From IMG/VR virus record IMGVR_UViG_3300025896_000021: DNA of 64,000 nt, one strand, 5' to 3'. Position 1 is the first letter of the stretch, and every line of letters starts with the position of its first letter. The position numbers and the translations under genes were made by a program. Of this stretch, positions 1 through 50,695 are shown piece after piece. The stretch comes from a virus. Its lineage: Duplodnaviria; Heunggongvirae; Uroviricota; Caudoviricetes. Below the pieces are notes generated by a model. It had not been told where the DNA came from. It saw only the letters and a program-made list of their open reading frames with translations, and did no database searches.

Positions 1-47
1 TGGTTTTCAAGGCCAGTCGCAGGACCATCCCCGCTGCATTACTCTCC
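1..47 (-). tRNA. tRNA-Ser(UGA), 5' part only (runs off window)
   Basis: Minus strand GGAGAGT...CTGGC-CT-TGA-AA-ACCA; variable and T arms lie outside the window. Confidence 0.75.
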
Positions 48-53
48 ATTTGT

Positions 54-110
54 TGGTGGTAGCTCGCTTTGCATCTCATGAAAACGCAAAGGGTCATGAC
101 TCCGACTACC
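54..110 (-). ncRNA. 57-nt tRNA-like mini RNA with acceptor stem, A-CCA end and one long hairpin capped by CAU
   Basis: GGTAGT pairs with GCTACC-A-CCA; internal CTTTGCGTTTT-CAT-GAGATGCAAAG hairpin; spaced like a unit of the tRNA array. Confidence 0.55.
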
Positions 111-115
111 GTAAT

Positions 116-236
116 TGGCCCCGTCTGGGGGAATCGAACCCCCGTTTCGTCCTTGACATGGAATGTTGTATATTGCTGACTGCATCCTTGACAGGATGAC
201 CTTTTATACGTGTGCTAACCACTACACTAAGACGGG
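116..236 (-). tRNA. tRNA-Asp(GUC) interrupted by a 46-nt insert (162-207) in the anticodon stem
   Basis: Acceptor CCCGTCT/AGACGGG-G-CCA, D arm, T arm GGGGG-TTCGATT-CCCCC; removing 162-207 restores CGTCC-AT-GTC-AA-GGACG and a 75-nt cloverleaf. Confidence 0.8.
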
Positions 237-1051: not shown

Positions 1052-1125
1052 TGGTGCCCCATGACAGAATTGAACTGCCGTATCCTGATTACAAAACAGG
1101 CGTAATACCGTTATACGAAAAGGGC
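1052..1125 (-). tRNA. tRNA-Thr(UGU)
   Basis: CCTGT-TT-TGT-AA-TCAGG; G1-C72, C2-G71; CCA. Confidence 0.9.
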
Positions 1126-1295: not shown

Positions 1296-1361
1296 ACAGG
1301 ATGCAGTTTCTTTTCAAAGATAAAAGTTTTGAATTGATTTAATTTTGCAGGATGCATCCTA
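1296..1361 (-). ncRNA. Stem-closed element AGGATGC...GCATCCTG enclosing an anticodon-like loop (CT-TTG-AA)
   Basis: Terminal AGGATGCA/TGCATCCT helix; both halves resemble the tRNA-Asp insert at 162-207. Confidence 0.55.
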
Positions 1362-12483: not shown

Positions 12484-13088
12484 ACATAGATACAGAGCAT
12501 TTACACTATTGGATGTGTGCTATCAGAGATAGTAATGACACTAAAAGAACACTAGACGCATTCTGGCGTGGGCAGATCAGTAGCAAAGAGTGGCTAATAG
12601 AGAGTCTTACACAGTATGTAACTAAACCCTCGTCAGTAGATATACACGGTGGATGGGTGGGAGTGCTAGCAAGTTTGTTGTTTCAATCAGATATCCCTGT
12701 CACTACTATCAGAAGCATAGACATTGACCCATGGTGCGAGTCTATAAGCAACATGATGAACAGAATGGAACAGATACAAGAACGGTATCGTGCGGTTACA
12801 AGTAACATGACTGAGATACGTAGTGATACTGATATCATTATCAATACATCATGTGAGCATATAACGCAGGATGAGTACGACTTATGGCTAAGTGGGTTGC
12901 CCTACAATAGCTTGTTAGTACTACAGAGTAACAACTATATAATTCCAGAGCATGTTCGCCCAGTAAATAGTCTAATAGAATTCGAATCACAGTCTCAGAT
13001 CAACGTGTTATGGTCTGGAGAGCTAGTGCTTCCACTATATACAAGATACATGATTATAGGCAAACAATGTTCCGATTCGATCAACTAG
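12480..13088 (+). CDS. Class I SAM-dependent methyltransferase-like protein
   Basis: DIHGGWVG, SIDIDP, IINTSCEH. Confidence 0.7.
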   Translation: MNIDTEHLHYWMCAIRDSNDTKRTLDAFWRGQISSKEWLIESLTQYVTKPSSVDIHGGWVGVLASLLFQSDIPVTTIRSIDIDPWCESISNMMNRMEQIQERYRAVTSNMTEIRSDTDIIINTSCEHITQDEYDLWLSGLPYNSLLVLQSNNYIIPEHVRPVNSLIEFESQSQINVLWSGELVLPLYTRYMIIGKQCSDSIN

Positions 13089-14143
13089 AAGACATACACT
13101 TAGAGATAACAAACAACTGTCAAGCATCATGCCCAATGTGTAGTCGCAACGTTAACGGGGGACTAGAGAACCCATTAATTCGTGTAACTAATTGGACATT
13201 AGATGAGTTCAAGACAATAATGTCACCCGTTGTACTGAAACAGATTAAACGCTATTACTTCTGCGGAAACTTCGGTGACCCCATGATGAACAATGATTTA
13301 ATAGAGATGATTGAATATAGTGTGTCAATCAACAGAGAATTGAACATACGAGTACACACTAATGGGGGCGCACGGAACACTGAATGGTGGACTAGACTAG
13401 CACTAGCACTACCCAAGAATCATTTGGTTACGTTCGCACTAGACGGTTTAAGTGACACCCATAGTCTATATAGAGTAGGAACAACATATGAAAACGTCAT
13501 ACGCAACTGCAAAACGTTTATCGATGCGGGTGGGAATGCTGAATGGGTATACATTAAGTTCAAGCACAATGAACATCAAGCTGAAAGTGCTAGACAAATA
13601 GCACTAGACATGGGCTTTAAAGAGTTCACCGTCAAGAATTCTAGCAGATTTATGATAGAGCCTAAGGTTAATGTAGTAGACAAGCATGGTAACTATACAC
13701 ACAGTATTGAACCGGCCACTGACACCCCCATGAAGTTCATTGACTTAAAGACTATTGAAGCATTCAGTGATATAGTAAAAGACAGTGTTATCGACTGCAA
13801 AGTAAAGAACGACAAGGAAGTGTACATAGATGCACATCGTAACCTATACCCTTGCTGTCACACTGCTAGCATTCCCTACATGCGTGAGCGCATTAACGGG
13901 TTTCACTCAGACAAGATTAAAGAAATCACTGACACAATGATGAGCCAGCATTTAGATATGATTAACACTATCGGGGAAGTCAATACACTATTACGTACGG
14001 TAGAAGACATTATTGACAGTACGGCATATCAAAACATGTGGGATGAGTACTGGACTACTAAGAAGTTGCTTATATGCGCTAGAACATGCGGCGTAAGCAA
14101 GAAGATAGACTTTTCACTACCGAGAGAACAATGGAAACAATAG
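13067..14143 (+). CDS. Radical SAM protein with C-terminal Cys cluster
   Basis: CQASCPMC, CGNFGDP, HTNGG, FALDG; PCC..CARTC; start moved to ATG 13067. Confidence 0.9.
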   Translation: MFRFDQLEDIHLEITNNCQASCPMCSRNVNGGLENPLIRVTNWTLDEFKTIMSPVVLKQIKRYYFCGNFGDPMMNNDLIEMIEYSVSINRELNIRVHTNGGARNTEWWTRLALALPKNHLVTFALDGLSDTHSLYRVGTTYENVIRNCKTFIDAGGNAEWVYIKFKHNEHQAESARQIALDMGFKEFTVKNSSRFMIEPKVNVVDKHGNYTHSIEPATDTPMKFIDLKTIEAFSDIVKDSVIDCKVKNDKEVYIDAHRNLYPCCHTASIPYMRERINGFHSDKIKEITDTMMSQHLDMINTIGEVNTLLRTVEDIIDSTAYQNMWDEYWTTKKLLICARTCGVSKKIDFSLPREQWKQ

Positions 14144-34336: not shown

Positions 34337-37300
34337 TTACAGTGTTATAGTACCGGAGCTCTTGAAGATGTATAAGATATACAATCCATCATATACTACA
34401 GTGCATCCACCAGTTGCAGCGGCCGGTGGGGAAGTCGTCAGTAATTGACGAATGATGACTATACCCGAACCGCCAGTTCCGCCATATGTGTAACCAGCTG
34501 CTGCGCCACCTGCGCCGCCACCTGTATTTGTTTTGCCATTTCTAACACCGGTCGAATTAGATTGAGTACTGGCTGCAGATCCGGAGCCTTGATAAGTACT
34601 GGATGCACCCACTGCCCCGCCACCTAAACCACCTGCGCCACCGCTACCGTTTGCCATGCCACCGCCTCCGCCAGCAAAGTAAACAGAACTACCAGAAATC
34701 TCTCCTACACCTAGCGTTAGTGCTATGCTAGCACCAATCAATGTAGATGCTATACCAACGCCACCGACACCGCCAAGTTGAGATACACCGTAACCACCTA
34801 CTGCTCCGGCGCCACCTCCGCCGCCGCCAGCCGATGTGCCTCCACCTTCATTACCTGTTCGGCAGTTGCCGCCGTTGTTACCGTATCCACCACTAGCACT
34901 AGTTGGTTGTAAACCTGTGCCGCCTGTGCCCGGTGGGTAGTCTCTACCACCACCACCACCACCACTGCCGCCTGCAGTACCGTTCACCTGGAACGTGCCG
35001 CTTGCGCCACCGCCTAATGCAGTGAGTGAAAAAGTATTATCGGCCGCAGCTACTGTCGAATTAGAACCGTTACTATTGTAGCCACCAGTACCAACTGTCA
35101 CTACTATCGCTGTTTGCGATACTATCACTGATTGAGGAATAGTGTAAGTTGTAAGGACTACTCCGCCACCGCCACCGCCACCGATACCAGAATTTGCGTC
35201 TCCAGCGCCTATTTGGCTACCACCACCACCACCGACTATCATCATATCCACAGTCACCGGTGTATCTACTGGGAACGATCTTTTGTACCCCCAGATAATA
35301 CGAACTGCACCGTCGCCACCGGGCCCGGAATTGCCGCCGAATGTGTAGAGGCCATTGCCACCACCACCGTACAATTTTCCGGATCCACCTGATCCAGGAC
35401 TACCACTAGCACTTGTTATGCCGCTCGAAGCTGCTGAGCCATTTGCACCTAGACCCATAATTCCTACACCACCACCAGAACCGGTACCGTTGCCAACGCT
35501 AGTAGTACCATTTCCGCCACCACCGCCACCATTCTGTCCAGCACCGGCGCTGAGTCCGCTGCTATCGCCACCTTGACCACCGGTACCACTATTGCCGTTG
35601 TATCCTCCAGCACCTCCGGCGCCACCCCAGATGAATGATACCCGGCCGCCAGCACCACCACCGTCTCCGGCCAGAACAGCGCCGCCCGGTACTAGAGTTC
35701 CACTGCAATTGCCCCCAGTGCCGCCACCGGCTCTGACAGTAGTTGTACTTAAAAAGTAACTGTCGCCACCCGAGAAGCCGGTGTTTGAGCTAGATTGATT
35801 AACTTGTGCAGCACCGCCCGCACCGACAACTACGGTGTATGATTGGCCAGGAGTAACCGAAATATTGTTTTTCCAAGCTAGAGCACCGCCACCACCGCCC
35901 ATAGCTCCGCCAGTACTACCTATGCCACCAGACCCGCCGCCGCCGACAGTCACTACACTAACACTAGTTACGTATGCTGGTGCTGTCCAAGTATAAGTAC
36001 CTGGTGTAGTATATGACATTTCACCGATAGGTATCATAGCAGTAACAAATTCAACCATGTCGCTGCTTACTTGTACACTTTCAAAGCTGTTAGAACCTGT
36101 TATTAAAAGAGGGTACTTGCTCTTTTGAACAAGTGTACCATAAGTTCCCCCAGCGCCTGCAAATGTTTTAGTCGCCTGTGCAACCATATTAATTGTACAA
36201 CCGGATGTGTCGAGCCCCGTACCATTTATAACAGACCAATTATTAGTTACTGTAATTGCACTCGCTCCAGTAATAACTCTTGATCCGGTACCAGTAGAGC
36301 TAAAATTGTAACAAGATATATCATATCCGGCTAGATTTAGTGTCCCGGCATTTACTACGATATTAGACATAACAGCTAATGTTTGAGTACCGTCTAATGT
36401 TAGTGTGGCGCCTGCCTTATTCACTCCAATGCCACTTAATACTTTGCTGAATTGACTAGTCCAAGTTTGTGTTCTAGTAAATACCGAAGTCAAACTAGTG
36501 TAAGTGCCACCGGTCGCAAGTGTTAGTGTATCTACATTTAATGTAGTTGGAATTATCTCACTCGTACTACCGGTAAAATCTAATACCCTAAACCAACTAC
36601 CATTACTGATTGTTAGTAGATTTGCACCAGAGGTTATAGATAAATTAGGTGCACTTGTTGCAGAGCCACCTGTTGTACTTCCGAAACTAAATGTTCTTGT
36701 CACATTCATTCCTGCAGTAAATCCACCAGTACCTGTACAAGTGAAGTTAGTAGCATCTGCCATTGATAAAACTTCAGTATCTGCTACAGTAGTTGCTAGT
36801 GTAATGTTATTTGAGCCAAATACAATCGCACGAGCATTATTATTACTTGAAACAACTGATCCAAATGTTACATTGCTACCGCCTAAATCTAATGTACCTG
36901 CAGTCAGTAATAACTTACTTGTCGTTGCATAGGTTTGTGTACCATCTAGAGTAAGAGTTGCATCAACACTATTTACACCTATTCCAGCTAATTGCTTGGC
37001 AAATTGCATTGTCCAAATTTGTGTTCTAGTGAATACAGGTGTTAATCCGGTATATGTACCGCCGGTCGCTAACGTCAATGTATCTACATATAAGGTAGTT
37101 GCTGCTATAGTGCTTGTAGTGCCGGTAACAGCTAATACTTTGAACCAACTACCACTGGTAAGTGTTATTGTGCTTGCACCACTGGTTAGTGATAGATTCA
37201 TTGCATTGAATATAGAACCCCCGGCTGTACTACCAAAAGTAAATGTTCTAGTTACACTCATTGCACTAGTAAATCCACCAGTGCCGGTGTAACTGAAGTT

Positions 37301-40300
37301 AGTAGCATCATCCATTGACAATACAGTAGTTGATGCGGTAGTGCTAGTTAATGCAATATTACCTGTACCAAAAGCTAGTACACGAACATTCGTGTTGCTT
37401 GAACTGAATCCAGCCGTTGTTAGTGTAAAATTGTTTAGATTCAGTTTTCCTAGAGTTAATGAGGTAACTCCTGTTACAGTTAATGCACCACTTAATGTTA
37501 CTATGTCAGGTGAAGATGCTATTAATGGAATAGCTATAATAGTAGAAACATTAGGTGATCCAGTCGTTGATGATGGATCCGCGTAAACGGACATGTAACT
37601 AATAATTACTACACCCGAGCCGCCTGCGCCACCGCTAGTATTTCCGCCACCACCGCCGCCACCTCCGCCGCCGGTGTTAGATGTGCCTGCTGATCCGTTT
37701 TGGAGGTTACCTCCACCTGCTCCGCCGCCGCCATTGCCGCCAGCGCCCGGAGTAGTATTTCCGCCACCACCACCACCGCCAGCATAATATGTTTCTGTAC
37801 CGGCAATAACAGAAGATAGTCCGTCGCCGCCAGAACTAGCGACAGTAGCCACTGCATCAGCGGCTGCAAAGCCTGCACCACCACCACCACCAGAAGAATC
37901 TGCATTTGCCGGGCCGGCTGCTGCTGCTGCACCACCGTTATTACCTTGACCTGCAGTACCGAGTCCGCCTATACGGGTGCCTAGGCCACCTCCACCTCCA
38001 CCACCGGATCCGCCTGCACCACCTGGGACTCGCTGCCCGCCGTAACCTCCACCAATTGCTATACTATCATGAAATGAAGATATTGATCCTGATGTTCCGC
38101 TAATACCAGTGGCTGCAATGCCACCTGATCCGACTGCTATTGAATAACTAGATCCGGGTACTATACTAGCACTTGATAAAATTAGACCGCCGGCACCGCC
38201 GCCGCCCCCGCCACCACCGGCACCAATACCTCCTCCTCCTCCACCACCGCCTGCAGCTACTAAATATTCAACTGTCGGTGGTGCATTAGATGCAGGGAAA
38301 GTTATTGACCCGGAACTATTAAACGTATAAACTTTATATGGAACCAGTACGTCGGGGTTATTAGAATTGATGTTTAGTGCTGCAATAGTTTTACCATTAC
38401 TAGTAATAGTTCCAGTACCAACCATATTTACTGTTAGATTAGTGTATGTTCCGCCAGTTGCTAATATTATAGAATTGACATTAACTGTTGTCACTGCAGG
38501 TGTGCTAGAACTACCAGTAAAATTCAAAGTATTAAACCAACTATTAGTTATGATAGTAGGAATAGCTGTACCACTGTAAATAGATAAATTAGGTGCCTTA
38601 GTTGATGAGCCACCTGCTGTACTACCAAATCTAAATGTTTGTGCTACACTCAATGCACTAGTAAATCCACCAGTACCAGTACAAGTAAAGTTAGTAGCAT
38701 CTGCCATTGACAATACAGCAGTTCCGGCTGCGGCGGCCGTACTTATTGCAATGTTGCCTGATCCAAAATCAATTGCACGAACATTCGTATTACTTGAAAT
38801 AAAACTACTAGTTGACAGTGTGAAATTGTTTAGATTAATTTTTCCAAAAGTTAATGTCGTAGTTCCTGTTACAAACAATGCGCTACTTAACGTTACTATG
38901 TCAGATGTAGTCTGTGTTACTGCTACTAAAGGGACCGCAATAGTATAAACAGCAGGTGATCCAGTCGTTGACGTTGGATCCGCGTAAGTAGCTAGATAAC
39001 GGATACTGACTAGGCCCGATCCACCACCACCACCGAGGCCGGTGCCGCCATTGAATCCCCCGCCCCCGCCGCCACCGCCCTTATTAGCTGTACCGTTGCT
39101 GCCATTAGAATCCGAGCCCCCTGCCCCTCCGCCACCATTTCCGCCAGCGCCGGCCGAAGTACTCTGCGCACCGCCGCCACCGCCACCGGCGTAATAACTA
39201 GATGTTCCGGATATAGAGTTTAATAGACCCACACCGCCTGCGCCGCCAACGCTGCCATTGTCGCCGATGGCTCCCATTCCGCCGCCACCGCCGCCGCGCC
39301 ACGGGCCAGGAGTGCCGCCATCGAAGCCTTGGCCGCCGCCATATCCTTGATTTCCGGCTGCACCTGCTTGATTGCCGTTCTGCGAGCCACCGCCACCGCA
39401 GGCACCAGTAGTTGGGCCGTTGATATCCTGATAGCCACCACCGCCACCGCCGTTTCCTGTAACTCCAGAAAAAGATGATGCAGTTCCGACAGCACCCGCA
39501 CTGTCGGCTATTACGGTAGCGGCTCCGCCGCTACCAACAGTAACCGGGTAACTTATCCCACTAGTTATCGAAGATGTTCCCGCTACTAATCCGCCGGCAC
39601 CGCCACCTCCGCCACCACGCTGGGCGCCGCCGCCTCCCCCGCCTCCCCCGCCAACTACTAGATATTCAACTGTAGGTGGTGCATTAGATGCAGGGAAAGT
39701 TATTGACCCGGAACTATTGAAAGTAACAACTTTATATTGTTCTGTTGTGTTAGGGTTATTAGAGTTGACAGTTAGTGCTCCAATAGTTTTACTATTGCCG
39801 TTGATAGTACCATTACCAACCATATTTACCGTTAGATTGGTATATGTTCCGGTGCCGGGCAGTGTTAAACTGTTGAGATTCAATGTAGCCACATCCGGTG
39901 TGCTAGAACTACCGGTAAAGTTTAAAGTATTAAACCAACTACCGGATATGAATGTTGGTATTGAGGCGCCACTAGTCAATGATAGGTTAGGTGCATTGAC
40001 TGATGTGCCCCCCGCAGTAGATCCAAAATTAAATGTTCTAGCTACACTCATTGCACTAGTAAATCCACCGGTACCAGTGTAGCTAAAATTAGTAGCAGTT
40101 GGCATACTAAGGTTTACTACGGCAGCAGTAGTAGTTGCTAATATAATATTGTTAGTACCAAAAGCAATTGAACGAGTGTCAGTAGTATTTGAAATAAATC
40201 TACCAAATGTTTGATTAACACCACCTAAATTCAATGTACCAGCAACTAAACTAAAACTACCAGTCGCACTGTAAGTTTGTGTTCCATCTAGTGTTAGTGT

Positions 40301-43300
40301 TCCATCAATTAAATTAAAACCAATGCCAGCTAATGTTTTACTGTATTGACTGGTCCATGTTTGTGTTCTAGTGAATAATGGAGTCAATCCAGTGTAAGTG
40401 CCGGCGGTAGCTAATGTCAATGTAGACACGTTTACCGTAGTTGCTGCGGGTGTACAAGTACTACCTGTAAAATTAAGTGCGTTAAACCAGCTACCACTGG
40501 TAATTGTTGGTATTGCAGCACCGCTAGTAATAGATAAGTTTGGTGCGTTACTTACAGAGCCGCCTGTTGTACTGCCGAATGTAAATGTTCTATCTACTGA
40601 CATTGCACTAGTAAATCCACCAGTACCAGTACAAGTAAAGTTAGTAGCATCTGCCATGTCTAAATTCAGCACTGCTGATCCACTAGGGACTGATAAAACA
40701 ATATTGCCGGTACCAAACGCAATTGATCTTGTGTTTGTGTTAGTCGAAATGAAAGCAGCAGTTGTTAATGTATACCCAGCTAGCGCCAGTGTCCCACTAG
40801 TTAACGTGACCGAACAATTCAACACATAGTTTACTGCAAAATTTCCACCCAGTGTAGTGGTGGCCGAATGATTGATAGTTAGCCCGCCTAATGATGCAGT
40901 GCCATTACCTATAATAATGCCACTGCCAACCAGGTTTACAATCAAAGCAGTATAGCTGCCGCCGCCACTGGATAATGTCAGCCCGTTTAAGTTTAATGTA
41001 GTTACACTGGGGGAAAATGCAGTAGTACCAAAATCAAGTTTATTAAACCAGCTACCAGTAGTCAATGTTTGTATAGCGGTACCTGAACCAGTAAATGTCA
41101 AGTTAGGAGCGTTGGCACTAGTGCCACCGGTAGTACCAAAAACAAATGTTCTTTCCCTATCCGCCGGTATTACAAATCCACCGGTGCCAGTGCAGGTAAA
41201 GTTGGTAGCATTGCCAAAGTTAAGAGCTGTTACTAGTGTAGCAGTAGTAGTCAATACAATATTGTTGGTGCCAAATGCAATCAATTCGGCGGTACTGTTG
41301 GCACTAAATGTTCCAATTGAGAAATCATATCCACCTAAATTTAATTTTCCTGCCTGCAATAAAAAGCTGGAAATAGCAGGGAATGTTTGTGTACCATCTA
41401 ATGTAAGCGTACCGCCAGCCAGGTTAAACCCCATGCCACCCAGTTGTTTACCATATTGCATTGACCAAGTTTGTGTTCTAGTAAATCTAGCTACCAAACC
41501 GGTATAATCGCCACCTGTGGCCAATATCAAGGTGTTCACGTACGCCGCTGCTGCAATCGGTGCGCAGGTACTACCAGTAAAGTCTAACTTATTAAACCAA
41601 CTGTTAGTAGTGATAGTTGGTACAGCACTACCACTAGTAATTGCTAGGCTCACTGCATTTGTCTCAGAGCCTCCAGTGGTTCCGAAAGTAAATGTGCGGG
41701 TGATTGATGCCGCAGTGACAAATCCACCAGTACCTGATGTAGTAAAGTTAGTAACAACTGCCATTGACAGAACAGTAGTAGCGACAGTAGTATGTGTCAG
41801 TGTAATATTACCTGTACCAAATTCAATTGAGCGGGCAACGATACCGGTCGAACTGAATATACCAGTACTCAAATTATAGTTATTCAAATTCAATGAGCCA
41901 GCAGTTAATGTATATGTACCATTCACGGTGAGAGCGTAACTCTTACCTAGTGTCACCGTACCTGCATTATGATTAAACGTAGCTACCGGACTTATTGTTC
42001 CACCAAGGTAAGTAAGTGATCCTGAATTTAAGGTAATAGCTGAACTCGGAGTGATGATACCATTATCAAGTACAAAATTTCCAGCAATATTAAACGAAGT
42101 GCAAACAAAAACATTAATGTTAGAGAATGAGCCGCTAGAATAGATGGCAACAGTTCCGGTCAAGTTAAAATTATTGAAGTCAATGTTACCAGTAGTGTAT
42201 GTATGCGTAGTGCAGGTTAGTGCCCCCGCTAATGAAGTAGTTCCTAAATCAGTATGATTTATAACTAATGCTGCTATGCTCTTGCCATTAGGTGTGATTA
42301 TACCATTAGACCGCATGGTTGCTGAAATACCAGTAAATGTGCCGCCACTAGATAACGTTAGGTTATTGACATTTACTACTGTTGCTGCAGGGGTGCAACT
42401 ACTACCAGTGAAGTCAAGAGTATTAAACCAACTATTAGTTGTAATAGACGGTATTGCTGTTCCGCTATTAATTAATAAGTTTGGTGCATTCGCCGTGCTA
42501 GCACCGAGGGTGCTGCCAAATTGATATGTTCTTGCTATAGTAGCATCAGACACAAAGCCTCCGCTGATACTAGTATAACTAAAGTTAGTAGCATCAGCTA
42601 CTGACAGCACTGCGCCCGCAGTAGTAGTGTTCAAAATAATATTAGTATTTTTAAACACAACTGAACGAATACTTGTGCCTGAACTAATGAATGACCCAAT
42701 TGTTAAATCATACCCACCTAAGTCTAACGTACCTGCTATCACTGAGCACACTGAAGTTGCAGTATATGTTTGAGTGCCGTCTAGCGTAACAGTAGTGAAA
42801 AGTCTGTTCACCCCGATACCACCTAACTGTTTACTGTGCTGACTAGTCCAAGTTTGTGTTCTAGTAAAGCAAGGGATCAATCCAGTATAAGTTCCAGTAG
42901 CGTCAAGCAGTAGCGTATCTATATTGACGGTAGTTGCAGCCGGGGTACAAGTACTGCCGGTAAAATCTAATACTTTGAACCAACTGTTAGTTGTAATAGT
43001 TGGTACAGCACTACCACTAGTGATTGCCAAGCTAGGTGCATTGTTAAAGTTAGCACCCAAAGTACTACCAACTGTAAATGTTTTGGTCACATCTGCTGTT
43101 GTTCTAAATCCACCAGTCCCGGTATAGTTGAAATTAGTAGCGTCTGCCATTGACAGTACAGTTTGTGCTGCTGTTGTGTGAGTTAACATAATATTACCCG
43201 TACCGAATAATATAGAACGGGCAATGATACCAGTTGAACTGAATATACCAGTAGACAACGTAAAATCATTCATTGCTAGTGTACCAGCAGTGAACGTGTA

Positions 43301-46300
43301 AGTACTGTTTGGTGCTAAGGTCAAGTCACTAGTCATATTAACAGTACCGCTAGTGTGTGTAAAATTTGTCACCGAAGACAAATCTCCACCAACATAATTA
43401 AATGTACCAGATGCTACAGTAAAAGTAGGAGTATTTATTACGCCGCTAATGAATGAAAATACTCCGGTTGAGATAGTGACACTAGCGCAAGTAATAGTAG
43501 CATCGGTCAACGTTCCACCAGTATAGGACATTGCTCCTGTACTATTTATAGTATAGGTTTGATAATCAATGAATCCATCTAATTGGAAGTAATTTGCACA
43601 TTGTATGTTGCTAGCTAATGTAACTGTACCAAGTGTGTTAACAGTAAATGATCCGATTGTTTTACCGGCAGTATTGATGGTACCAGTACCGATCATATTA
43701 GGTGATAGTGCGGTGTACGTGCCATTAATAGATAACAACAGAGTAGTAAGATTTAATGTAGTTGTACCTGGATTGAATGAAGTAGTGCCAAAATTTAGTG
43801 AGTTAAACCAACTAGCAGTGGTAAGAGTTTGCACTGCTGCACCAGTAGTAAAAGTTAAGTTAGGTGCATTAGCTGTTGTACCGCCAATGGTGTTACCAAA
43901 AGCAAAAGTCCGTGTTATATCTGCTGCTGCTCTAAAGCCGCCGATACCAGTGCAACTAAAATTAGTAGCAGTTGACATATTAAGGTTTACTGCGGCTGCT
44001 GTACTAGTTGCGAGAATAATATCATTGAGACCAAAACTTATTTCACGAATATTTGCGTTACTTGAACTGAATATACCAGTAGTTAAGTTGTAACCGTTTA
44101 AAACTATGTATCCAGCAGTCAATGTATACGTACCGGTAGCAGTGAGCGCATACGCTTTAGAAAAAGTTGCGACGCCTGAAGTATGAATGAATGCCGGTGC
44201 CGGACTTAACGTACCACCGACATATTCAAATGTACCTGACGCTAATATGAAGCTAGTGCTAGGAGTAAGTGTACCGTTGGTAAGAGTGAAGTTACCGTTA
44301 ACAGTAAAAGTAGTGCAAGAAATTATACCAGTATTAGCGTATGTACCAGATGTGTAAGCTATTGCACCTGCGCAGGTTAAATTATATGTACCAAAATCAA
44401 TATCACCTGATGTTTGAGTATATGTTCCTGAAACTGTCAAGGATCCAGTAAAAGTTGTAGTACCAATGTGGTTGACGACTAATACGAACATTGATTTACC
44501 GTTACCGTTAATAGTACCAGTGTCAACTATATTTGCAGTCAAGTTAGCATATGATGCAGCACCACCAAGAGTTAATGATTTAAGATTTAATGTTACGAGT
44601 GTACCAGTAGCAGACCCAGATACAATACAAGTACTACCAGTCAAATCAAGTTTATTAAACCAACTGGTTGAAAAAAACAATATTTCATTAGAACCACTAG
44701 TAATAGACAAATTGGGTGCGTTAGAATCAGTACCACCTGCGGTGCGACCAAAATCAAATCTTCTACCAACTATATCTGCAGCGGCAACAAATCCACCTAT
44801 ACCGGTATATGAGAAGTTAGTAGCATCGGCCATTGACAAACAATTAATATTAGTAACAGTATTTGTTAATACAATGCTACCCGAACCAAATGCAATTGCA
44901 CGAGTGTTAGCATTAGATGAACTAAAGATACCAGTTGTTAATGTAAACCCACCTAAGTCTAGTGTACCACTTGTCAGTGCATAAATACCAGTAGTAGTGA
45001 GGCTATAATCTTTACCAAATATCACATCACCTGATGTATGAGTGAATAGAGGAGTTGGGCCCATCGATCCTAGTGCAGCCAATGTATATGAACCTGAGTT
45101 AATTACAAAACTAATGCTGCAATTTATAGATCCACTGTCAAGTACTAGAGTAGGTCCGTTGAGCGTAAAAGTAGTACAACTAATATTTCCAAAATTAAGT
45201 ATTACTCCACCATTATAATTGATTACCCCCAGTGAGGTAAATGCAAACCCAGCTAAATCTAAAGTAGTGTTTATCAACTGAGTATGAGCATTGACTCCCA
45301 ATGCACTTAGTAGGGTAGTTGTCCCTGTAGTAGGAATAGTAAACGTGTTTACTGACTTACCATTACCGCTGATAGTGCTAGCAGGTCCAAACATATTTGC
45401 AGTTAATGCAAGATATGTACCGCTACTGGATAATATTAACTCATTTACATTTATAATAGCAGGAGCACTTGTGCCAGTGCTACCAGTAAAGTCAAGTTTC
45501 TTAAACCAACTATTGTTTACCGAATCAAATGGAGCACTACCCGATGCTACAAATAAATTAATCGCATTGGAGGTATCGGCGCCGGATGTGCTACCAAAAT
45601 TGAACGATTGGGCTACGCCCATACTACCTTTAAATCCGCCGGTGCCTGTATAAGTGAAGTTGTCAGCAATTGGCATATCTATGCCGGCGGTAGTAGTTAC
45701 TATATAGTTAGTGCCAAAAATTATTGAACGTACCGTATTATAAGACGAAGCAAACGATCCGGTTGTCAAATCATAGCCATTCAAATCTAATGTAGGAGCT
45801 AAAGTGGCGCCAAATGTAGTAGTGCCGACCACAGTAACCGTTCCGACTAAACTTGTAGTACTGTCATGGTTTATAGTTAATGCCGCGATTGATTTACTGT
45901 TACCATTAATAGTACTCATTCCAACCATGTTTATAGTCATGAGAGTGTAGGTGCCATCACCTAAAATTAACGACTGTGTGTTAAAACTTCCAGTTACTCC
46001 GGTGCTACTACCGGCTACCGTACTTGTACTACCGGTATAGTCAACAGTTTTGAAATAACTTCCAGTGTACATCAGAACTTCACTAGCACCACTAGTGATT
46101 GACAAATTGGGTGCATTAGTTAATGTGGCTCCACCAGAACGACCGAAGTCAAATCTTCTAGAAGTTGTCATTGCGCTAGTAAAGGCGCCTGTGCCAGTAT
46201 AAGTAAAGTTAGTAGCAATAGCCATTACTAGAGCACTATTACCTGCAATAGTATTAGTCAATACAATATTAGTAGAACCAAATATTATTGAACGCTCATT

Positions 46301-49300
46301 TGTATTAGTTGAACTGAATACACCAGTTGTTAACGTGAATCCACCTAAATCTAATATACCTGTTGTTAATGTAGTGGTTCCGCCTGCGGTCAATGAGAAT
46401 GCATCTACCAATGTAGTAGTACCCGACACTGAATTGATATTCAATATTGCTAAAGTCGCATTTCCATTAGATTTGATAGTTCCAGTACCAACCATGTTTA
46501 TAGTCATGGTAGTATAAACGCCTGCGGCCGATGAAAGAGCTAAACTATCAAGATTTAATGTAGTTGTTCCTGGATTAAACGCAGTAGTACCAAAGTCTAG
46601 TTTATTAAACCAACTACTACTAGTCAGTGTTTGAATAGCAACGCCTGTAGTAAATGTTAAGTTAGGTGAGTTGTTAGTTGTTCCTCCGGTCGTACCAAAG
46701 GTAAACGTTCTAGTAATATCTGCTGCTGCCACGAATCCACCAGTACCGATATAAGTGAAGTTAGTAGCAGTCGCTATATTAAGGTTTACTGCGGCTGCGG
46801 TAGTAGTCGCTAATATAATATTATTAGAACCAAAACTTATTGAACGAGTGTTGGTATTAGTAGAACTGAATGTACCTATAGTTAGATCGCTGCTACCTAA
46901 GTCTAAAGTACCAAGAACTAGTAAAAATATTGATGTTGCAGTATATGTCTGTGTGCCATCTAATGTTAGTGTTCCGCTGCCTAAGTTAAATCCAATGCCG
47001 CCTAGTTGTTTACTGAACTGACTTGACCAAGTTTGTGTTCTAGTGAATACAGGAATTAGTCCAGTGTAAGTTCCGCCTGTTGCTAGAGTCAATGTACTGA
47101 CGTATATACCTAGAGTAATCGCAGACATTGCCGGGGTACACGTACTACCAGTAAAATTTAAAGTGTTGAACCATGATCCATTAGTAAATGTCGGAACTTC
47201 TGCTCCACTAGTGATAGATAGATTAGGTGCATTAGTTGATGAACCACCTGCGATATAACCAAATCGTAATGTGCGAGTAACGTTCATTCCTGTAACAAAC
47301 CCGCCCGTTCCAGTGTAACTAAAGTTAGTAGCATCTGATACTTCTAACACCACAACCGCAACAGTAGTATGTGTTAATACGATGTTGCCTGTACCAAATG
47401 CAATTGAACGAACAATAATGCCGTTTGTGTTGAATATACCAGTGGTCAGTGTAAAATCATTAAGATTTAATGTGCCACTTGTTAGAGTAGTAGTACCGGT
47501 GACAACAGTGGTTAATGCATCATTTAAAGTAGTAATTGCTGTACTATTGACAGTCAATGCTGCAATTGTTTTACCAGCAGTAGTTACACTGCCGGTGCCA
47601 ATTCCTACTATAGTTAAACCAGTATAAGTGCCGCCGGTATTTAAGATAATAGTGCTGACGTTCACTGATGTAGTAGGAACTGCGAATGCAGTAGTACCAA
47701 AATCAAGAGTGTTAAACCAACTACCAGTTGAGAATGTTGCTATACCAGCGCCAGTGCCAGTTAGCTTTATCTTAGGTGCGTTGGCTGCAGTAGGGGCAGT
47801 ACCACTAGTGCCGAATATATATGATCGTGTTACTGAGGCATCACTTTCAAACTGTCCAGTGCCGGTGTAAGTGAAGTTACTAGCGTTCGCTACTGATAAT
47901 ACGTTTGTTCCTGCCGCGGTAGTTGCTAATATAATTTTATTAGTACCAAACGCAATTGAACGGGCTAAGGTACTAGATGCAGTAAATGAACCTATAGTTA
48001 AATCTCTACCATTCAAATCGAATGTACCTGAATTCAAGTTGATGCTAGAAGTTGCTGCGCCAAACGGCAAGTTACTTGGTAGATAAAACGTACTCAAAGT
48101 ATTGATAACTAATCCACTGATAGGTTTACCATTAGAAACTATAGTACCACTACCAACCATTGTAGGTGTCAAACTGGTATATGTTCCACCAGTTGATAGT
48201 ACCAAATCGTTGACATTCAATCCAGTGCCAGGGAGCACGAATGCAGTAGTACCAAAATCTAGTTTATTAAAATAACTAGCAGTAGTAAGAGTTTGTATTG
48301 CGGTACCAGTAGTAAATGTTAAGTTAGGAGCGTTCGCTGATGTGCCGCCTGTAGTACCAAATGTAAATGATCTTGTTATATTTGCTGCTGCGTTGAATCC
48401 ACCGGTGCCTGTACAACTAAACCCAGTAGCAGTTGCCATGTTCAGGTTAGTTGCTGCCGCAGTAGTAGTTGACAATATAATGCTACTGGTACCGAAAGTT
48501 ATTGAACGAGTGTTAGTGTTAGTCGAACTGAATGTTCCAATAGTTAAATCACCAGTTAAATTCAATGTGCCAGCAGTTAGGGTGAATGCAGCAGTAGGAA
48601 CAAACGTTGGGGTGCCGTCTAAAGTTAGTGTTCCGCCACTTAAGTTAAATACCATACCTCCTAATTGTTTACTGAATTGACTTGTCCACGTCTGTGTTCT
48701 AGTGAACGACGGTATTAAAGCTGTATATGTACCACCTGATGCCAATGTTAATGTAGACACGTTAACTGTAGTTGCAGCAGGGGTACATGTGCTACCGGTA
48801 AAGTCTAACGTATTAAACCAACTGTTAGTTGTGATAGTAGGTATTGCAGCACCACTAGTAATAGCTAAGTTAGGTGCATTAATTGATGTGCCGCTAGTGG
48901 TTCCAAAAGTAAATGTGCGGGTGATTGATGCCGCAGTGACAAATCCACCAGTAGTTGCGGTTGTTGTAAGATTAGTTACAATTGCCATATTCAATACTGT
49001 AGTAGCGGCAGTAGGGTGCGCTAATACAATATTACCTGTATCAAATGCAATTGCACGGATAGTAGTATTAGACGAACTGAATATACCAGTTGTTAATGTA
49101 AAACTAGCTAATGCAAGAGTGCCGCTTGTCAATGTAGTAGTAGCGGTGTTAACTGTTGTGAGTGCATCTCCTAATGTTGTAGTACCTGATATACTATTAA
49201 TAGTTAATGTCGGTAGAGGTTTGCCATTGGAAATAATAGTACCAGTTCCTACCATTGTCGGCGTTAAAGTAGTAAATGTACCACCACTTGATAATGTTAA

Positions 49301-50695
49301 TCCATCCAAGTTTAATGCCGTTGTTCCCGGATTAAATGCAGTAGTACCAAAATTCAATAAACCAAACCAACTACCTGTTGTGAATGTTTGTACTGCTGTA
49401 CCACTACCAGTTAATGCTAAGTCAGGGGACTTCGCTGATGTGCCACCTGTAGTTCCAAACGTATAAGTTCTGGTTACTGATGCATCACTAACAAATGACG
49501 GTGATCCAGTAGAACTATAATTAGTAAGAACAGCCATATCCAATACAGTCTGCGCAGCAGTAGTGTGTGTCAAATATATACTATTTGTACCCCATGCAAT
49601 TGCCCGAATGTTTGTGTTATTGGAACTGAAACTACCAGTAGTTAAATTAAACCCATTTAATAAAAGGCTACCATTCGTTAATGTGGTGGTGACCGCTGCT
49701 CCAGTAGTTAATGCACTACCTAAAGTCCATGCCCCGCCTACTCCATTAAATGTTATCGGACTACTAATTGCTACTGTGTTAGCGGTTACTGTTCTACCCG
49801 AAGTGGTAGAGTTGAATGTTAGCAGACCAGTGGCACTCCAAACTGTTCCCGCATCTAATGACATAGAACCAGAATTTGTAAGTGTACCTGTGGATGTAAA
49901 TGTGGGTGCGCTGGCACTAACAGTCATACCAAAGCATGTTAAAGCACCTGTCATAGTGACAGTATAAGTACCAGCTTGATCAAATGTTACAGAATCAGAC
50001 ACCTTCGGGGCAGGAGCACCACTTGCACCACCTGATGAGAATGCCCAGTTAGTTGTTGTAGCATCCCATGTTCCAGTGCCGCCTACCCAATAGCGGCCGC
50101 TGGGTATGATGGAGAATGTAAAACCAGTCAGCTGGGTTAGAACATCTATTGTTGCGGATCTAATGGTACTAAGGCCTGCTGCTGCTTGAGTCTCATCTAC
50201 AATTAACAAACCGTTAGAAGTTGTATTGGACGATGCATTGACACGAGTTGTAGTAGGGGAACCGGGCGCTGTCCAGTTGCCTCCTGTGTTGGTAGCAGCA
50301 AAAACACTAACTTGAAGTTCATTGGCATAAGTGTTTGTTGTTTGTGAAGAAGTAGTTATAGGGCCTAGAGAAAGAGTTGGTTTATAAACATAACCACTAG
50401 TTACATCAACTGCGCTTGCGCCACGATAAGCAAGCATAACTGCAATAGAGTTAGCGCCGGTTAAGTTTGTTAGTGCTACTGCTGTTTCTGTACCAGTTGC
50501 AATTTTAGAGAGAATGACCACATACATTTGCCCACCTTGTGAGCGAGTTTGTGTCCAACCAGCCGGAGTTGCAACCGTACTTGAACCAGTGACAGTAATT
50601 AGAAGCAAGTCTCCTTGAATAAATCCTGCAGGAACTGCTACTGTAGGATTTACTCCTCCGGCTACAGCACCGGCAGCAACAAATGATACTGCCAT
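34337..50695 (-). CDS. Giant (5452 aa) repeat-rich virion fibre/adhesin
   Basis: RYWVGGTGTW motif, ~19 Thr/Gly-rich repeats marked by S(W/Y)F..L.F, four Gly-rich domains; ATAAATA at 50730-50736. Confidence 0.85.
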   Translation of the reverse strand: MAVSFVAAGAVAGGVNPTVAVPAGFIQGDLLLITVTGSSTVATPAGWTQTRSQGGQMYVVILSKIATGTETAVALTNLTGANSIAVMLAYRGASAVDVTSGYVYKPTLSLGPITTSSQTTNTYANELQVSVFAATNTGGNWTAPGSPTTTRVNASSNTTSNGLLIVDETQAAAGLSTIRSATIDVLTQLTGFTFSIIPSGRYWVGGTGTWDATTTNWAFSSGGASGAPAPKVSDSVTFDQAGTYTVTMTGALTCFGMTVSASAPTFTSTGTLTNSGSMSLDAGTVWSATGLLTFNSTTSGRTVTANTVAISSPITFNGVGGAWTLGSALTTGAAVTTTLTNGSLLLNGFNLTTGSFSSNNTNIRAIAWGTNSIYLTHTTAAQTVLDMAVLTNYSSTGSPSFVSDASVTRTYTFGTTGGTSAKSPDLALTGSGTAVQTFTTGSWFGLLNFGTTAFNPGTTALNLDGLTLSSGGTFTTLTPTMVGTGTIISNGKPLPTLTINSISGTTTLGDALTTVNTATTTLTSGTLALASFTLTTGIFSSSNTTIRAIAFDTGNIVLAHPTAATTVLNMAIVTNLTTTATTGGFVTAASITRTFTFGTTSGTSINAPNLAITSGAAIPTITTNSWFNTLDFTGSTCTPAATTVNVSTLTLASGGTYTALIPSFTRTQTWTSQFSKQLGGMVFNLSGGTLTLDGTPTFVPTAAFTLTAGTLNLTGDLTIGTFSSTNTNTRSITFGTSSIILSTTTAAATNLNMATATGFSCTGTGGFNAAANITRSFTFGTTGGTSANAPNLTFTTGTAIQTLTTASYFNKLDFGTTAFVLPGTGLNVNDLVLSTGGTYTSLTPTMVGSGTIVSNGKPISGLVINTLSTFYLPSNLPFGAATSSINLNSGTFDLNGRDLTIGSFTASSTLARSIAFGTNKIILATTAAGTNVLSVANASNFTYTGTGQFESDASVTRSYIFGTSGTAPTAANAPKIKLTGTGAGIATFSTGSWFNTLDFGTTAFAVPTTSVNVSTIILNTGGTYTGLTIVGIGTGSVTTAGKTIAALTVNSTAITTLNDALTTVVTGTTTLTSGTLNLNDFTLTTGIFNTNGIIVRSIAFGTGNIVLTHTTVAVVVLEVSDATNFSYTGTGGFVTGMNVTRTLRFGYIAGGSSTNAPNLSITSGAEVPTFTNGSWFNTLNFTGSTCTPAMSAITLGIYVSTLTLATGGTYTGLIPVFTRTQTWSSQFSKQLGGIGFNLGSGTLTLDGTQTYTATSIFLLVLGTLDLGSSDLTIGTFSSTNTNTRSISFGSNNIILATTTAAAVNLNIATATNFTYIGTGGFVAAADITRTFTFGTTGGTTNNSPNLTFTTGVAIQTLTSSSWFNKLDFGTTAFNPGTTTLNLDSLALSSAAGVYTTMTINMVGTGTIKSNGNATLAILNINSVSGTTTLVDAFSLTAGGTTTLTTGILDLGGFTLTTGVFSSTNTNERSIIFGSTNIVLTNTIAGNSALVMAIATNFTYTGTGAFTSAMTTSRRFDFGRSGGATLTNAPNLSITSGASEVLMYTGSYFKTVDYTGSTSTVAGSSTGVTGSFNTQSLILGDGTYTLMTINMVGMSTINGNSKSIAALTINHDSTTSLVGTVTVVGTTTFGATLAPTLDLNGYDLTTGSFASSYNTVRSIIFGTNYIVTTTAGIDMPIADNFTYTGTGGFKGSMGVAQSFNFGSTSGADTSNAINLFVASGSAPFDSVNNSWFKKLDFTGSTGTSAPAIINVNELILSSSGTYLALTANMFGPASTISGNGKSVNTFTIPTTGTTTLLSALGVNAHTQLINTTLDLAGFAFTSLGVINYNGGVILNFGNISCTTFTLNGPTLVLDSGSINCSISFVINSGSYTLAALGSMGPTPLFTHTSGDVIFGKDYSLTTTGIYALTSGTLDLGGFTLTTGIFSSSNANTRAIAFGSGSIVLTNTVTNINCLSMADATNFSYTGIGGFVAAADIVGRRFDFGRTAGGTDSNAPNLSITSGSNEILFFSTSWFNKLDLTGSTCIVSGSATGTLVTLNLKSLTLGGAASYANLTANIVDTGTINGNGKSMFVLVVNHIGTTTFTGSLTVSGTYTQTSGDIDFGTYNLTCAGAIAYTSGTYANTGIISCTTFTVNGNFTLTNGTLTPSTSFILASGTFEYVGGTLSPAPAFIHTSGVATFSKAYALTATGTYTLTAGYIVLNGYNLTTGIFSSSNANIREISFGLNDIILATSTAAAVNLNMSTATNFSCTGIGGFRAAADITRTFAFGNTIGGTTANAPNLTFTTGAAVQTLTTASWFNSLNFGTTSFNPGTTTLNLTTLLLSINGTYTALSPNMIGTGTINTAGKTIGSFTVNTLGTVTLASNIQCANYFQLDGFIDYQTYTINSTGAMSYTGGTLTDATITCASVTISTGVFSFISGVINTPTFTVASGTFNYVGGDLSSVTNFTHTSGTVNMTSDLTLAPNSTYTFTAGTLAMNDFTLSTGIFSSTGIIARSILFGTGNIMLTHTTAAQTVLSMADATNFNYTGTGGFRTTADVTKTFTVGSTLGANFNNAPSLAITSGSAVPTITTNSWFKVLDFTGSTCTPAATTVNIDTLLLDATGTYTGLIPCFTRTQTWTSQHSKQLGGIGVNRLFTTVTLDGTQTYTATSVCSVIAGTLDLGGYDLTIGSFISSGTSIRSVVFKNTNIILNTTTAGAVLSVADATNFSYTSISGGFVSDATIARTYQFGSTLGASTANAPNLLINSGTAIPSITTNSWFNTLDFTGSSCTPAATVVNVNNLTLSSGGTFTGISATMRSNGIITPNGKSIAALVINHTDLGTTSLAGALTCTTHTYTTGNIDFNNFNLTGTVAIYSSGSFSNINVFVCTSFNIAGNFVLDNGIITPSSAITLNSGSLTYLGGTISPVATFNHNAGTVTLGKSYALTVNGTYTLTAGSLNLNNYNLSTGIFSSTGIVARSIEFGTGNITLTHTTVATTVLSMAVVTNFTTSGTGGFVTAASITRTFTFGTTGGSETNAVSLAITSGSAVPTITTNSWFNKLDFTGSTCAPIAAAAYVNTLILATGGDYTGLVARFTRTQTWSMQYGKQLGGMGFNLAGGTLTLDGTQTFPAISSFLLQAGKLNLGGYDFSIGTFSANSTAELIAFGTNNIVLTTTATLVTALNFGNATNFTCTGTGGFVIPADRERTFVFGTTGGTSANAPNLTFTGSGTAIQTLTTGSWFNKLDFGTTAFSPSVTTLNLNGLTLSSGGGSYTALIVNLVGSGIIIGNGTASLGGLTINHSATTTLGGNFAVNYVLNCSVTLTSGTLALAGYTLTTAAFISTNTNTRSIAFGTGNIVLSVPSGSAVLNLDMADATNFTCTGTGGFTSAMSVDRTFTFGSTTGGSVSNAPNLSITSGAAIPTITSGSWFNALNFTGSTCTPAATTVNVSTLTLATAGTYTGLTPLFTRTQTWTSQYSKTLAGIGFNLIDGTLTLDGTQTYSATGSFSLVAGTLNLGGVNQTFGRFISNTTDTRSIAFGTNNIILATTTAAVVNLSMPTATNFSYTGTGGFTSAMSVARTFNFGSTAGGTSVNAPNLSLTSGASIPTFISGSWFNTLNFTGSSSTPDVATLNLNSLTLPGTGTYTNLTVNMVGNGTINGNSKTIGALTVNSNNPNTTEQYKVVTFNSSGSITFPASNAPPTVEYLVVGGGGGGGGGAQRGGGGGGAGGLVAGTSSITSGISYPVTVGSGGAATVIADSAGAVGTASSFSGVTGNGGGGGGYQDINGPTTGACGGGGSQNGNQAGAAGNQGYGGGQGFDGGTPGPWRGGGGGGMGAIGDNGSVGGAGGVGLLNSISGTSSYYAGGGGGGAQSTSAGAGGNGGGGAGGSDSNGSNGTANKGGGGGGGGFNGGTGLGGGGGSGLVSIRYLATYADPTSTTGSPAVYTIAVPLVAVTQTTSDIVTLSSALFVTGTTTLTFGKINLNNFTLSTSSFISSNTNVRAIDFGSGNIAISTAAAAGTAVLSMADATNFTCTGTGGFTSALSVAQTFRFGSTAGGSSTKAPNLSIYSGTAIPTIITNSWFNTLNFTGSSSTPAVTTVNVNSIILATGGTYTNLTVNMVGTGTITSNGKTIAALNINSNNPDVLVPYKVYTFNSSGSITFPASNAPPTVEYLVAAGGGGGGGGIGAGGGGGGGGAGGLILSSASIVPGSSYSIAVGSGGIAATGISGTSGSISSFHDSIAIGGGYGGQRVPGGAGGSGGGGGGGLGTRIGGLGTAGQGNNGGAAAAAGPANADSSGGGGGAGFAAADAVATVASSGGDGLSSVIAGTETYYAGGGGGGGNTTPGAGGNGGGGAGGGNLQNGSAGTSNTGGGGGGGGGGNTSGGAGGSGVVIISYMSVYADPSSTTGSPNVSTIIAIPLIASSPDIVTLSGALTVTGVTSLTLGKLNLNNFTLTTAGFSSSNTNVRVLAFGTGNIALTSTTASTTVLSMDDATNFSYTGTGGFTSAMSVTRTFTFGSTAGGSIFNAMNLSLTSGASTITLTSGSWFKVLAVTGTTSTIAATTLYVDTLTLATGGTYTGLTPVFTRTQIWTMQFAKQLAGIGVNSVDATLTLDGTQTYATTSKLLLTAGTLDLGGSNVTFGSVVSSNNNARAIVFGSNNITLATTVADTEVLSMADATNFTCTGTGGFTAGMNVTRTFSFGSTTGGSATSAPNLSITSGANLLTISNGSWFRVLDFTGSTSEIIPTTLNVDTLTLATGGTYTSLTSVFTRTQTWTSQFSKVLSGIGVNKAGATLTLDGTQTLAVMSNIVVNAGTLNLAGYDISCYNFSSTGTGSRVITGASAITVTNNWSVINGTGLDTSGCTINMVAQATKTFAGAGGTYGTLVQKSKYPLLITGSNSFESVQVSSDMVEFVTAMIPIGEMSYTTPGTYTWTAPAYVTSVSVVTVGGGGSGGIGSTGGAMGGGGGALAWKNNISVTPGQSYTVVVGAGGAAQVNQSSSNTGFSGGDSYFLSTTTVRAGGGTGGNCSGTLVPGGAVLAGDGGGAGGRVSFIWGGAGGAGGYNGNSGTGGQGGDSSGLSAGAGQNGGGGGGNGTTSVGNGTGSGGGVGIMGLGANGSAASSGITSASGSPGSGGSGKLYGGGGNGLYTFGGNSGPGGDGAVRIIWGYKRSFPVDTPVTVDMMIVGGGGGSQIGAGDANSGIGGGGGGGVVLTTYTIPQSVIVSQTAIVVTVGTGGYNSNGSNSTVAAADNTFSLTALGGGASGTFQVNGTAGGSGGGGGGRDYPPGTGGTGLQPTSASGGYGNNGGNCRTGNEGGGTSAGGGGGGAGAVGGYGVSQLGGVGGVGIASTLIGASIALTLGVGEISGSSVYFAGGGGGMANGSGGAGGLGGGAVGASSTYQGSGSAASTQSNSTGVRNGKTNTGGGAGGAAAGYTYGGTGGSGIVIIRQLLTTSPPAAATGGCTVVYDGLYILYIFKSSGTITL

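Follow-up and report, generated by a model that had tools for sequence, protein, structure and literature searches.

The window analyzed here, 64,000 nt of viral DNA (bases 16205–80204 of the 98,387-bp IMG/VR virus record IMGVR_UViG_3300025896_000021; G+C 41.7%), carries close to its start a tRNA-Asp(GUC) gene interrupted by a short insert. The gene occupies positions 116–236 on the minus strand, is 121 nt long and encodes its own CCA. The record, estimated by CheckV to be about 27% complete, contains at least 42 tRNA genes, every one of them on the minus strand, and one virion protein shares 48% identity with that of Synechococcus phage S-CAM1; on the strength of these two features the source of the window is assigned to a large T4-like marine phage.

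Read in the direction of transcription, exon 1 (209–236, minus strand, as are all the parts that follow) provides the 5′ strand of the acceptor stem, the D arm and nucleotides A26, C27 and G28, and ends in the ACG found throughout the family described below. The insert of 46 nt lies within 162–208, as either 163–208 or 162–207, and contains a hairpin, CAUCCU-GUCA-AGGAUG, with a GNNA tetraloop (183–198), the pairing of which is backed by covariation in the family, followed by the conserved single-stranded CAGCAA (173–178; family consensus CNGCA(A)). Exon 2 (116–161) supplies C30 and C31, the anticodon loop AUGUCAA (153–159) with the anticodon GUC at 155–157, the GGACG strand of the anticodon stem, the variable loop, the T arm, the 3′ strand of the acceptor, G73 and CCA.

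The undeleted sequence 116–236 was called as a tRNA neither by ARAGORN run without introns nor by the Rfam model RF00005 (gathering threshold and E ≤ 10), whereas ARAGORN with introns allowed (-i) gave outer ends identical to those above. An earlier note, made from the letters of the window alone, had described this gene, and all its coordinates for 116–236 proved correct when read on the minus strand. Its claim that deletion of 162–207 leaves a perfect cloverleaf was confirmed by ARAGORN, which returned a 75-nt tRNA-Asp(GTC) with stems of 7/4/5/5 bp, the 7-nt loop AUGUCAA and an encoded CCA. The hairpin noticed in the insert, CATCC-TGTCAA-GGATG, is present at 198–183, and the 9-mer TGTCAAGGA does occur twice, at 193–185 and 158–150. 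The site proposed for the insert, between positions 29 and 30 of the tRNA, stands, but 28/29 is equally possible owing to the slide of a single T (position 208), which may be counted with the exon or with the insert. In either case the rebuilt stem pairs CG|UCC or CGU|CC with GGACG around the loop AUGUCAA, with the 5′ junction after ACG. The intact tRNA-Asp(GUC) gene reported at 1132–1206 is real, and a second intact copy was found at genome positions 13060–13134, which gives two in the record.

Relatives of the interrupted gene were found in several ways. Exact-word scans of IMG/VR yielded four contigs (L001–L004) with the same gene and insert. In L001, L003 and L004 the insert is identical to that of the window and all differences fall in the exons and leave the pairing intact; in L001, they change the T stem from GGGGG/CCCCC to GGUGG/CCAUC and an acceptor C to U, creating a G-U pair. 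L002 and five further metagenome contigs have an insert one A shorter and the anticodon loop AUUCUAA (UCU), not AUGUCAA (GUC). Independent support for a family came from blastn with the 131-nt region, which produced an alignment spanning the insert to Synechococcus phage BUCT-ZZ01 (E = 2e-11) and a weaker one to KVP40-like vibriophages. The insert is conserved in relatives, lack of conservation being what the earlier note had named as the sign of a decaying pseudogene.

Combining ARAGORN -i with a parsing script, we collected 33 long tRNA-like genes of the same design, each of 110–132 nt. The carriers include the vibriophages KVP40, ValKK3, phi-Grn1, nt-1, F86, V07 and D479, Aeromonas phage Ahp1, Synechococcus phage BUCT-ZZ01, the 735-kb uncultured phage LR756501 and several IMG/VR contigs. 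In the GenBank records examined these genes either lacked annotation or bore the labels tRNA-OTHER, pseudo, or tRNA for Cys, Phe or Asn; the Cys label probably arose when tRNAscan took the conserved CUGCAA for a GCA anticodon loop. No description of such an insert family was found in the full-text literature searched. No intron-less allele of the interrupted tRNA-Asp gene was present in IMG/VR; uninterrupted tRNAs with the same D arm exist there and are other tRNAs, e.g., Gln.

The inserts share a common plan. Module and linkers together measure 36–56 nt and follow the order: an A-rich 5′ linker, a stem of 6–8 bp, a GNNA loop, 3–4 nt, CNGCA(A) and a 3′ linker of variable length, the linkers around the module being A/U-rich. 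The insert of the window has this hairpin, spacing and motif within a tRNA-like gene. In an alignment of 27 members the stem has 7 bp, of which the last pairs are C-G and U-A, the loop appears as GUCA, GUAA, GACA, GAUA, GUUA, GAAA, GGUA or GGAA, and C-N-G-C-A, with its C, G, C and A, is invariant and usually followed by A. Hairpin cells of this alignment were paired in 92.6% of cases compared with 63.8% in shuffles, compensatory changes were seen at all seven hairpin pairs, and the observed covariation was reached in none of 500 shuffles. Registers slid along the hairpin gave only 38–46% pairing. RNAalifold applied to 22 full-length members recovered the acceptor, D and T arms and the insert hairpin, and nothing else. 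The single-stranded CNGCAA and the linkers are conserved better than the sequence of the hairpin stem; when CNGCAA was compared by eye, without a systematic test, with the D loop, the T loop and the splice-site flanks, no conserved complementarity was noticed. On this comparative evidence the 46 nt are best described as belonging to a conserved, phage-specific family of short structured tRNA intervening sequences.

The search for the module in other phage tRNAs that the earlier note had proposed, done with a covariance model (R1), found members in BUCT-ZZ01 and ValKK3. R1 was run on 574.5 kb, including the whole 98-kb record of the window, BUCT-ZZ01 and ValKK3, and all matches with E < 0.01 fell within long tRNA-like genes: one in the record of the window, two in BUCT-ZZ01 and five in ValKK3. 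The match at window positions 171–203 scored 34 bits (E = 8.7e-5), the window sequence having been part of the model seed. The search also added the family member L018 6438–6565. A 19-base module pattern had no match in tRNA context in 185,579 prokaryote genomes, with two matches there that both look like chance, and in metagenomes 14 of its 19 matches lay within interrupted tRNAs. In BUCT-ZZ01, the modules of the interrupted CAU and Asn tRNAs are identical over 32 nt while their exons differ, which suggests that the insert was spread by transfer or gene conversion.

Several module-like or exon-like sequences were met outside the family. In the metagenome contigs L086 (at about 1703) and L097, a hairpin with CAGCAA (CAUGCUGGUAAGCAUG-CAA-UCAGCAA) lies outside any tRNA, between a terminator-like hairpin and the start of an open reading frame (ORF); it could be the module standing alone or a match by chance. 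In the window, the spacer between tRNA-Gly and tRNA-Thr (1296–1361, minus strand) has AGGAUGCA...CUGCAA and CAUCCUG as the insert does, in swapped order, and could form an 8-bp stem AGGAUGCA/UGCAUCCU enclosing about 45 nt; it was rejected as a further copy of the module, having no match to R1. Orphan units in L008, L011, L012 and L013, and also in L009, L010 (at 667) and L014, begin like exon 1, with 7 nt followed by GGUGUAGUGG(N)AGCACACGUAA; some end in a short acceptor-like stem plus a terminator, and others continue into the start of an ORF. The possibility that the 5′-half look-alikes in L008–L014 are ORF-bearing long versions of the insert was dismissed, as they have neither a T arm nor a matching 3′ exon.

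According to the parsing script, 29 of the 33 genes regain a perfect anticodon stem of 5 bp, canonically spaced from the D and T arms, once the 36–56 nt are removed. The rebuilt stems differ from member to member (CGUCC/GGACG, CGAUC/GAUCG, CGGAA/UUCCG, ACGGC/GCCGU, CGUGC/GCACG) and the 5′ junction nearly always comes straight after ACG, at 28/29 or 29/30. In an Ala-like subfamily the insert sits at about 31/32. In another subfamily (KVP40 4568, F86 1629) it is located in the loop itself: exon 1 ends in ...AAAGA-AUG, giving A32-U33-G34, exon 2 continues with UAAA or UGGG and then UCUUU, and the 7-nt loop AUGUAAA or AUGUGGG exists only after excision. Insert-bearing orthologues also show compensated stems (AACGG/CCGTT to AACAG/CTGTT to ACTAG/CTAGT) and a compensated acceptor (GCAGGGT/ACCCTGC to TGCGGGT/ACCCGCA). 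Since these acceptor and T-stem changes occurred among carriers of the insert, the tRNA fold has been maintained since the insertion and is, on this comparative ground, under selection.

The reading that we prefer, tentatively and with a confidence falling somewhat short of even, is that the insert is a protein-dependent mini-intron and that the exons are sealed by phage RNA ligases. The precursor would fold as a normal tRNA with the module as a side branch on the anticodon stem. A phage or host factor would recognize the module or the junction, and two cuts at the base of the branch would free the insert. Because the 3′ strand of the anticodon stem would keep the exon ends aligned, these would then form a nick in a duplex, to be sealed by a phage ATP-dependent RNA ligase; this would be of the Rnl2 type where the insert lies in the stem, and Rnl1, with the help of Pnkp where the ends need healing, where it lies in the loop. 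Rnl2 acts preferentially on nicked duplexes, and it is from this that the putative link between Rnl2 and the stem-located inserts is drawn. The proposal starts from what was observed, i.e., family membership, the structure of the module, the canonical rebuilt arm, selection on the fold and the ligases of complete carrier genomes; excision itself, the cutter, the chemistry of the ends and the acting ligase are its presumed elements. Excision is favored because the rebuilt anticodon arm is exactly canonical across deep divergence, and because the loop-located members have an anticodon loop only after excision.

The enzymes encoded by the carriers bear on this proposal. Among the ligases and splicing endonucleases that the earlier note had suggested looking for, both Rnl1 and Rnl2 are encoded by BUCT-ZZ01 and ValKK3, but RtcB and the PF01974 domain are absent. 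A full-length homologue of T4 Pnkp is present in ValKK3 and KVP40, and in BUCT-ZZ01 a homologue whose match is confined to residues 1–139 of T4 Pnkp adjoins Rnl1. No match to Rnl1 was obtained in the record of the window, which is uninformative for a fragment that is only about 27% complete. In the vibriophages, the cluster of interrupted tRNAs lies just downstream of a small gp57B-like 2H-phosphoesterase gene with two H-x-T motifs, sometimes annotated as an RNA ligase (L015 6107–6562 in KVP40, L006 1–449, L032 1–427). This neighborhood is not specific because the same gene also lies close to the tRNA cluster in T4. Just downstream of the vibriophage cluster, a conserved ORF of about 120 aa was noted as well.

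A number of observations speak against such splicing. Rnl1 and Rnl2 are encoded also by T4, which has no insert, so the ligases are not specific evidence. PF01974, the EndA domain, was not detected in BUCT-ZZ01, ValKK3, LR756501, T4 and one partial IMG/VR record, whereas the archaeal controls were, and RtcB was absent from four complete phage genomes and one partial IMG/VR record; we know of no splicing endonuclease of the EndA family in bacteria. No candidate endonuclease emerged and the neighboring ORFs contained no nuclease domain, their only signals, a HigB-like match of 18.6 bits and a partial VWA domain, being below threshold and rejected. The distances between the module and the junctions vary on both sides, and therefore a simple ruler measuring from the module cannot set the cuts. 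The product would be of doubtful use in decoding as well. For most of the interrupted anticodons the same genome also has an intact tRNA (two for Asp in the record of the window; CAU and Asn in BUCT-ZZ01), and the anticodon is the fastest-changing part among close orthologues (GUC/UCU, AGG/UAG, GUA/GUG). Several members have A33 or C33, or GUA or UAG anticodons on class I bodies. After removal of the insert, several are left with anticodon loops of 8 nt (AUUCAUAA, AUCAUCAA, AUCAUAAA, AUUUCCAA) or 9 nt, AUUCAUAA recurring in KVP40, F86, V07 and one metagenome contig; the members with such loops are L015 4932–5055, L033 1495–1614, L034 1495–1618, L087, L031 382–500, L006 1495–1617 and L037 922–1051. 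They may be quadruplet-reading or non-decoding RNAs, or the true junction may be one base off.

Much of this would be accommodated if the insert were never spliced, a serious possibility to which we nevertheless give clearly less than an even chance. The gene would then specify a stable non-decoding tRNA-like RNA, with ends processed by RNase P and CCA-type maturation, whose extra arm bars it from the ribosome and whose exposed anticodon-like loop and/or hairpin-CNGCAA arm engages a protein; one possible role is to inhibit, or act as a decoy for, host nucleases that target tRNAs or a tRNA-modifying enzyme. Loop middles hypervariable among orthologues, in loops of 7, 8 or 9 nt that retain A32-U33 and A37-A38, would suit such an RNA, as would the bodies that mismatch the identity of their anticodons, the redundancy of those anticodons, and the better conservation of CNGCAA and linkers relative to the hairpin stem. 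The T4 cluster itself produces oversized tRNA-like stable RNAs, rnaC and rnaD. Against this stand the loop-located members, in which an anticodon-like loop forms only upon splicing, and the canonically spaced stem of exactly 5 bp in 29 of 33 genes, for which an unspliced three-way junction has no need. Nor is a partner protein known.

It is improbable that a small selfish insertion has turned the gene into a dead tRNA copy, tolerated thanks to the intact tRNA-Asp genes. The two intact tRNA-Asp(GUC) genes in the same genome agree with this, and some members are indeed degenerate, such as phi-Grn1 1759 with its visibly bulged T stem. Compensatory changes in the acceptor and T stems of insert-bearing orthologues argue the opposite, as does the conservation of the family from cyanophages to vibriophages to the 735-kb phage. 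The comparison of the window with L001 points the same way, with no differences in 46 insert nucleotides against four in 75 exon nucleotides, a contrast that is not significant by itself.

Still less probable is excision without rejoining, after which the tRNA would work as two paired pieces, like bacterial 23S rRNA with its intervening sequences removed. The halves of genes with stem-located inserts would be held by 7 + 2–3 bp plus tertiary contacts, and a dedicated ligase would be unnecessary. The carrier phages do encode RNA ligases, however, the loop-located members would be left with a broken anticodon loop, and a hairpin of 7 bp is probably too short for the RNase III route of the rRNA intervening sequences.

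The version put forward in the earlier note, an unspliced two-loop decoy showing two GUC anticodon loops, is hardly credible: the 9-mer UGUCAAGGA is present twice and a direct repeat of at least 9 nt arose in just 67 of 5000 shuffles (1.3%), but the family alignment already contradicts the idea, the supposed second GUC loop being a U-A-closed 4-nt GNNA loop with a freely varying middle rather than an anticodon loop of 7 nt. Its bases do not track the anticodon, as L002 combines a GUCA insert loop with the anticodon UCU and Aeromonas phage Ahp1 has CATCCT-GTCA-AGGATG in a gene for Asn(GUU). L002, the closest variant, has lost the repeat, which also has no counterpart in other family members; for these reasons it was treated as incidental.

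The surroundings of the interrupted gene contain other RNA-like elements that escaped one or both programs. Directly after it, at 54–110 (minus strand), there is a 57-nt unit with an acceptor-like stem of 5–6 bp (GGUAG.../...CUACC), a 6-bp hairpin whose 13-nt loop contains UUCAUGA, and a terminal A-CCA; it has neither a D nor a T arm and was called by neither ARAGORN nor Rfam. An identical copy is present in L002, and none in L001, where synteny breaks. Positions 1–47 (minus strand), continuing upstream to about genome position 16161, belong to a 91-nt tRNA-Ser(UGA)-like gene (GGAGAGU...CUUGAAA...GCCA) that is cut by the start of the window and was missed by ARAGORN even when the whole record was run. 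At 1055–1125 (minus strand), Rfam reports a tRNA with 53.7 bits where ARAGORN makes no call. The minus strand at 34337–50695 carries a single ORF of 5452 aa with adjoining ORFs of 964, 1024 and 1875 aa; the 964-aa product matches a cyanomyovirus virion structural protein.

To our knowledge, the removal of short tRNA introns by proteins has been demonstrated in archaea and eukaryotes only, and self-splicing group I introns are the only kind known from the tRNA genes of bacteria and phages. Neither of these routes can splice an anticodon-stem insert of about 46 nt that is conserved and structured. Its existence points either to a pathway of RNA processing not yet recognized in infected bacteria or to non-decoding tRNA-like RNAs of a new class, and the presence of the family in the cultured model phages KVP40, nt-1, ValKK3 and BUCT-ZZ01 brings the question within reach of familiar systems. 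The answer could also shed light on what Rnl1 and Rnl2 of phages act on in nature. A broader idea, rather unlikely in our judgment, is that T4-like and other large phages run in bacteria their own protein-based tRNA splicing, relying on neither a ribozyme nor the bulge-helix-bulge (BHB) motif, in which the mini-intron is excised from the anticodon stem or loop and the nicked stem sealed by Rnl2 or Rnl1. If this were true, Rnl1 and Rnl2 would gain a natural substrate encoded by the phage itself, and the phage would possibly keep a reserve of tRNA untouchable by host anticodon nucleases until spliced.

Set beside the known systems, the insert fits none of them. Group I introns are about 200 nt or longer, with a P1–P9 core and a terminal G. 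The insert is short and not self-splicing, as the earlier note had argued: it measures 46 nt, ends in U, and 116–236 has no Rfam match at E ≤ 10, so a group I intron or another Rfam ribozyme was rejected. What is shared is the interruption of the anticodon region of tRNAs in bacteria and phages, some group I introns being also mobile (PMC3984707). The protein-spliced introns of archaea and eukaryotes are likewise short, occupy varied positions in the anticodon arm and need an endonuclease and a ligase, as the phage inserts would (PMC4090602). A BHB intron was defined by two 3-nt splice-site bulges separated by a 4-bp helix; among 11 members the central helix at the inferred junctions had 0–3 of four pairs and never all four within 2 nt, and this type was rejected as well. 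In phages there is a likeness to the "enigmatic" tRNA introns of the Lak megaphages, which are also short, conserved and non-self-splicing, reside in phage tRNA genes and were found through oversized or pseudo-called genes (Devoto et al. 2019, PMC6784885). According to Table S6 of that paper, they measure 93 and 114 nt, with a third of about 80 nt, are located at 37/38 and contain tRNA-like T-arm sequences (PMC6784885). The inserts of the present family are 36–56 nt long, consist of a GNNA hairpin with CNGCAA and usually interrupt the anticodon stem in its 5′ strand; they differ from the Table S6 sequences in position, size and content alike, and are not of the Lak type.

T4 itself offers two points of comparison. 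Its species 1 and 2 RNAs, rnaC and rnaD, are oversized products of a T4-type tRNA cluster with no known function, and rnaC has a T arm and an acceptor-like stem; unlike the family, they have no anticodon arm that can be rebuilt. They were discarded as homologues, as no likeness was seen by eye and R1 had no match in the T4 tRNA region. In the tRNA repair of T4, cleavage by PrrC is healed by Pnkp and sealed by Rnl1, while Rnl2 seals nicks. This system provides the rejoining chemistry that a spliced insert would need, with homologues in ValKK3/KVP40 and BUCT-ZZ01, but it is known as the repair of damage to host tRNAs and not as the processing of interrupted tRNAs encoded by the phage.
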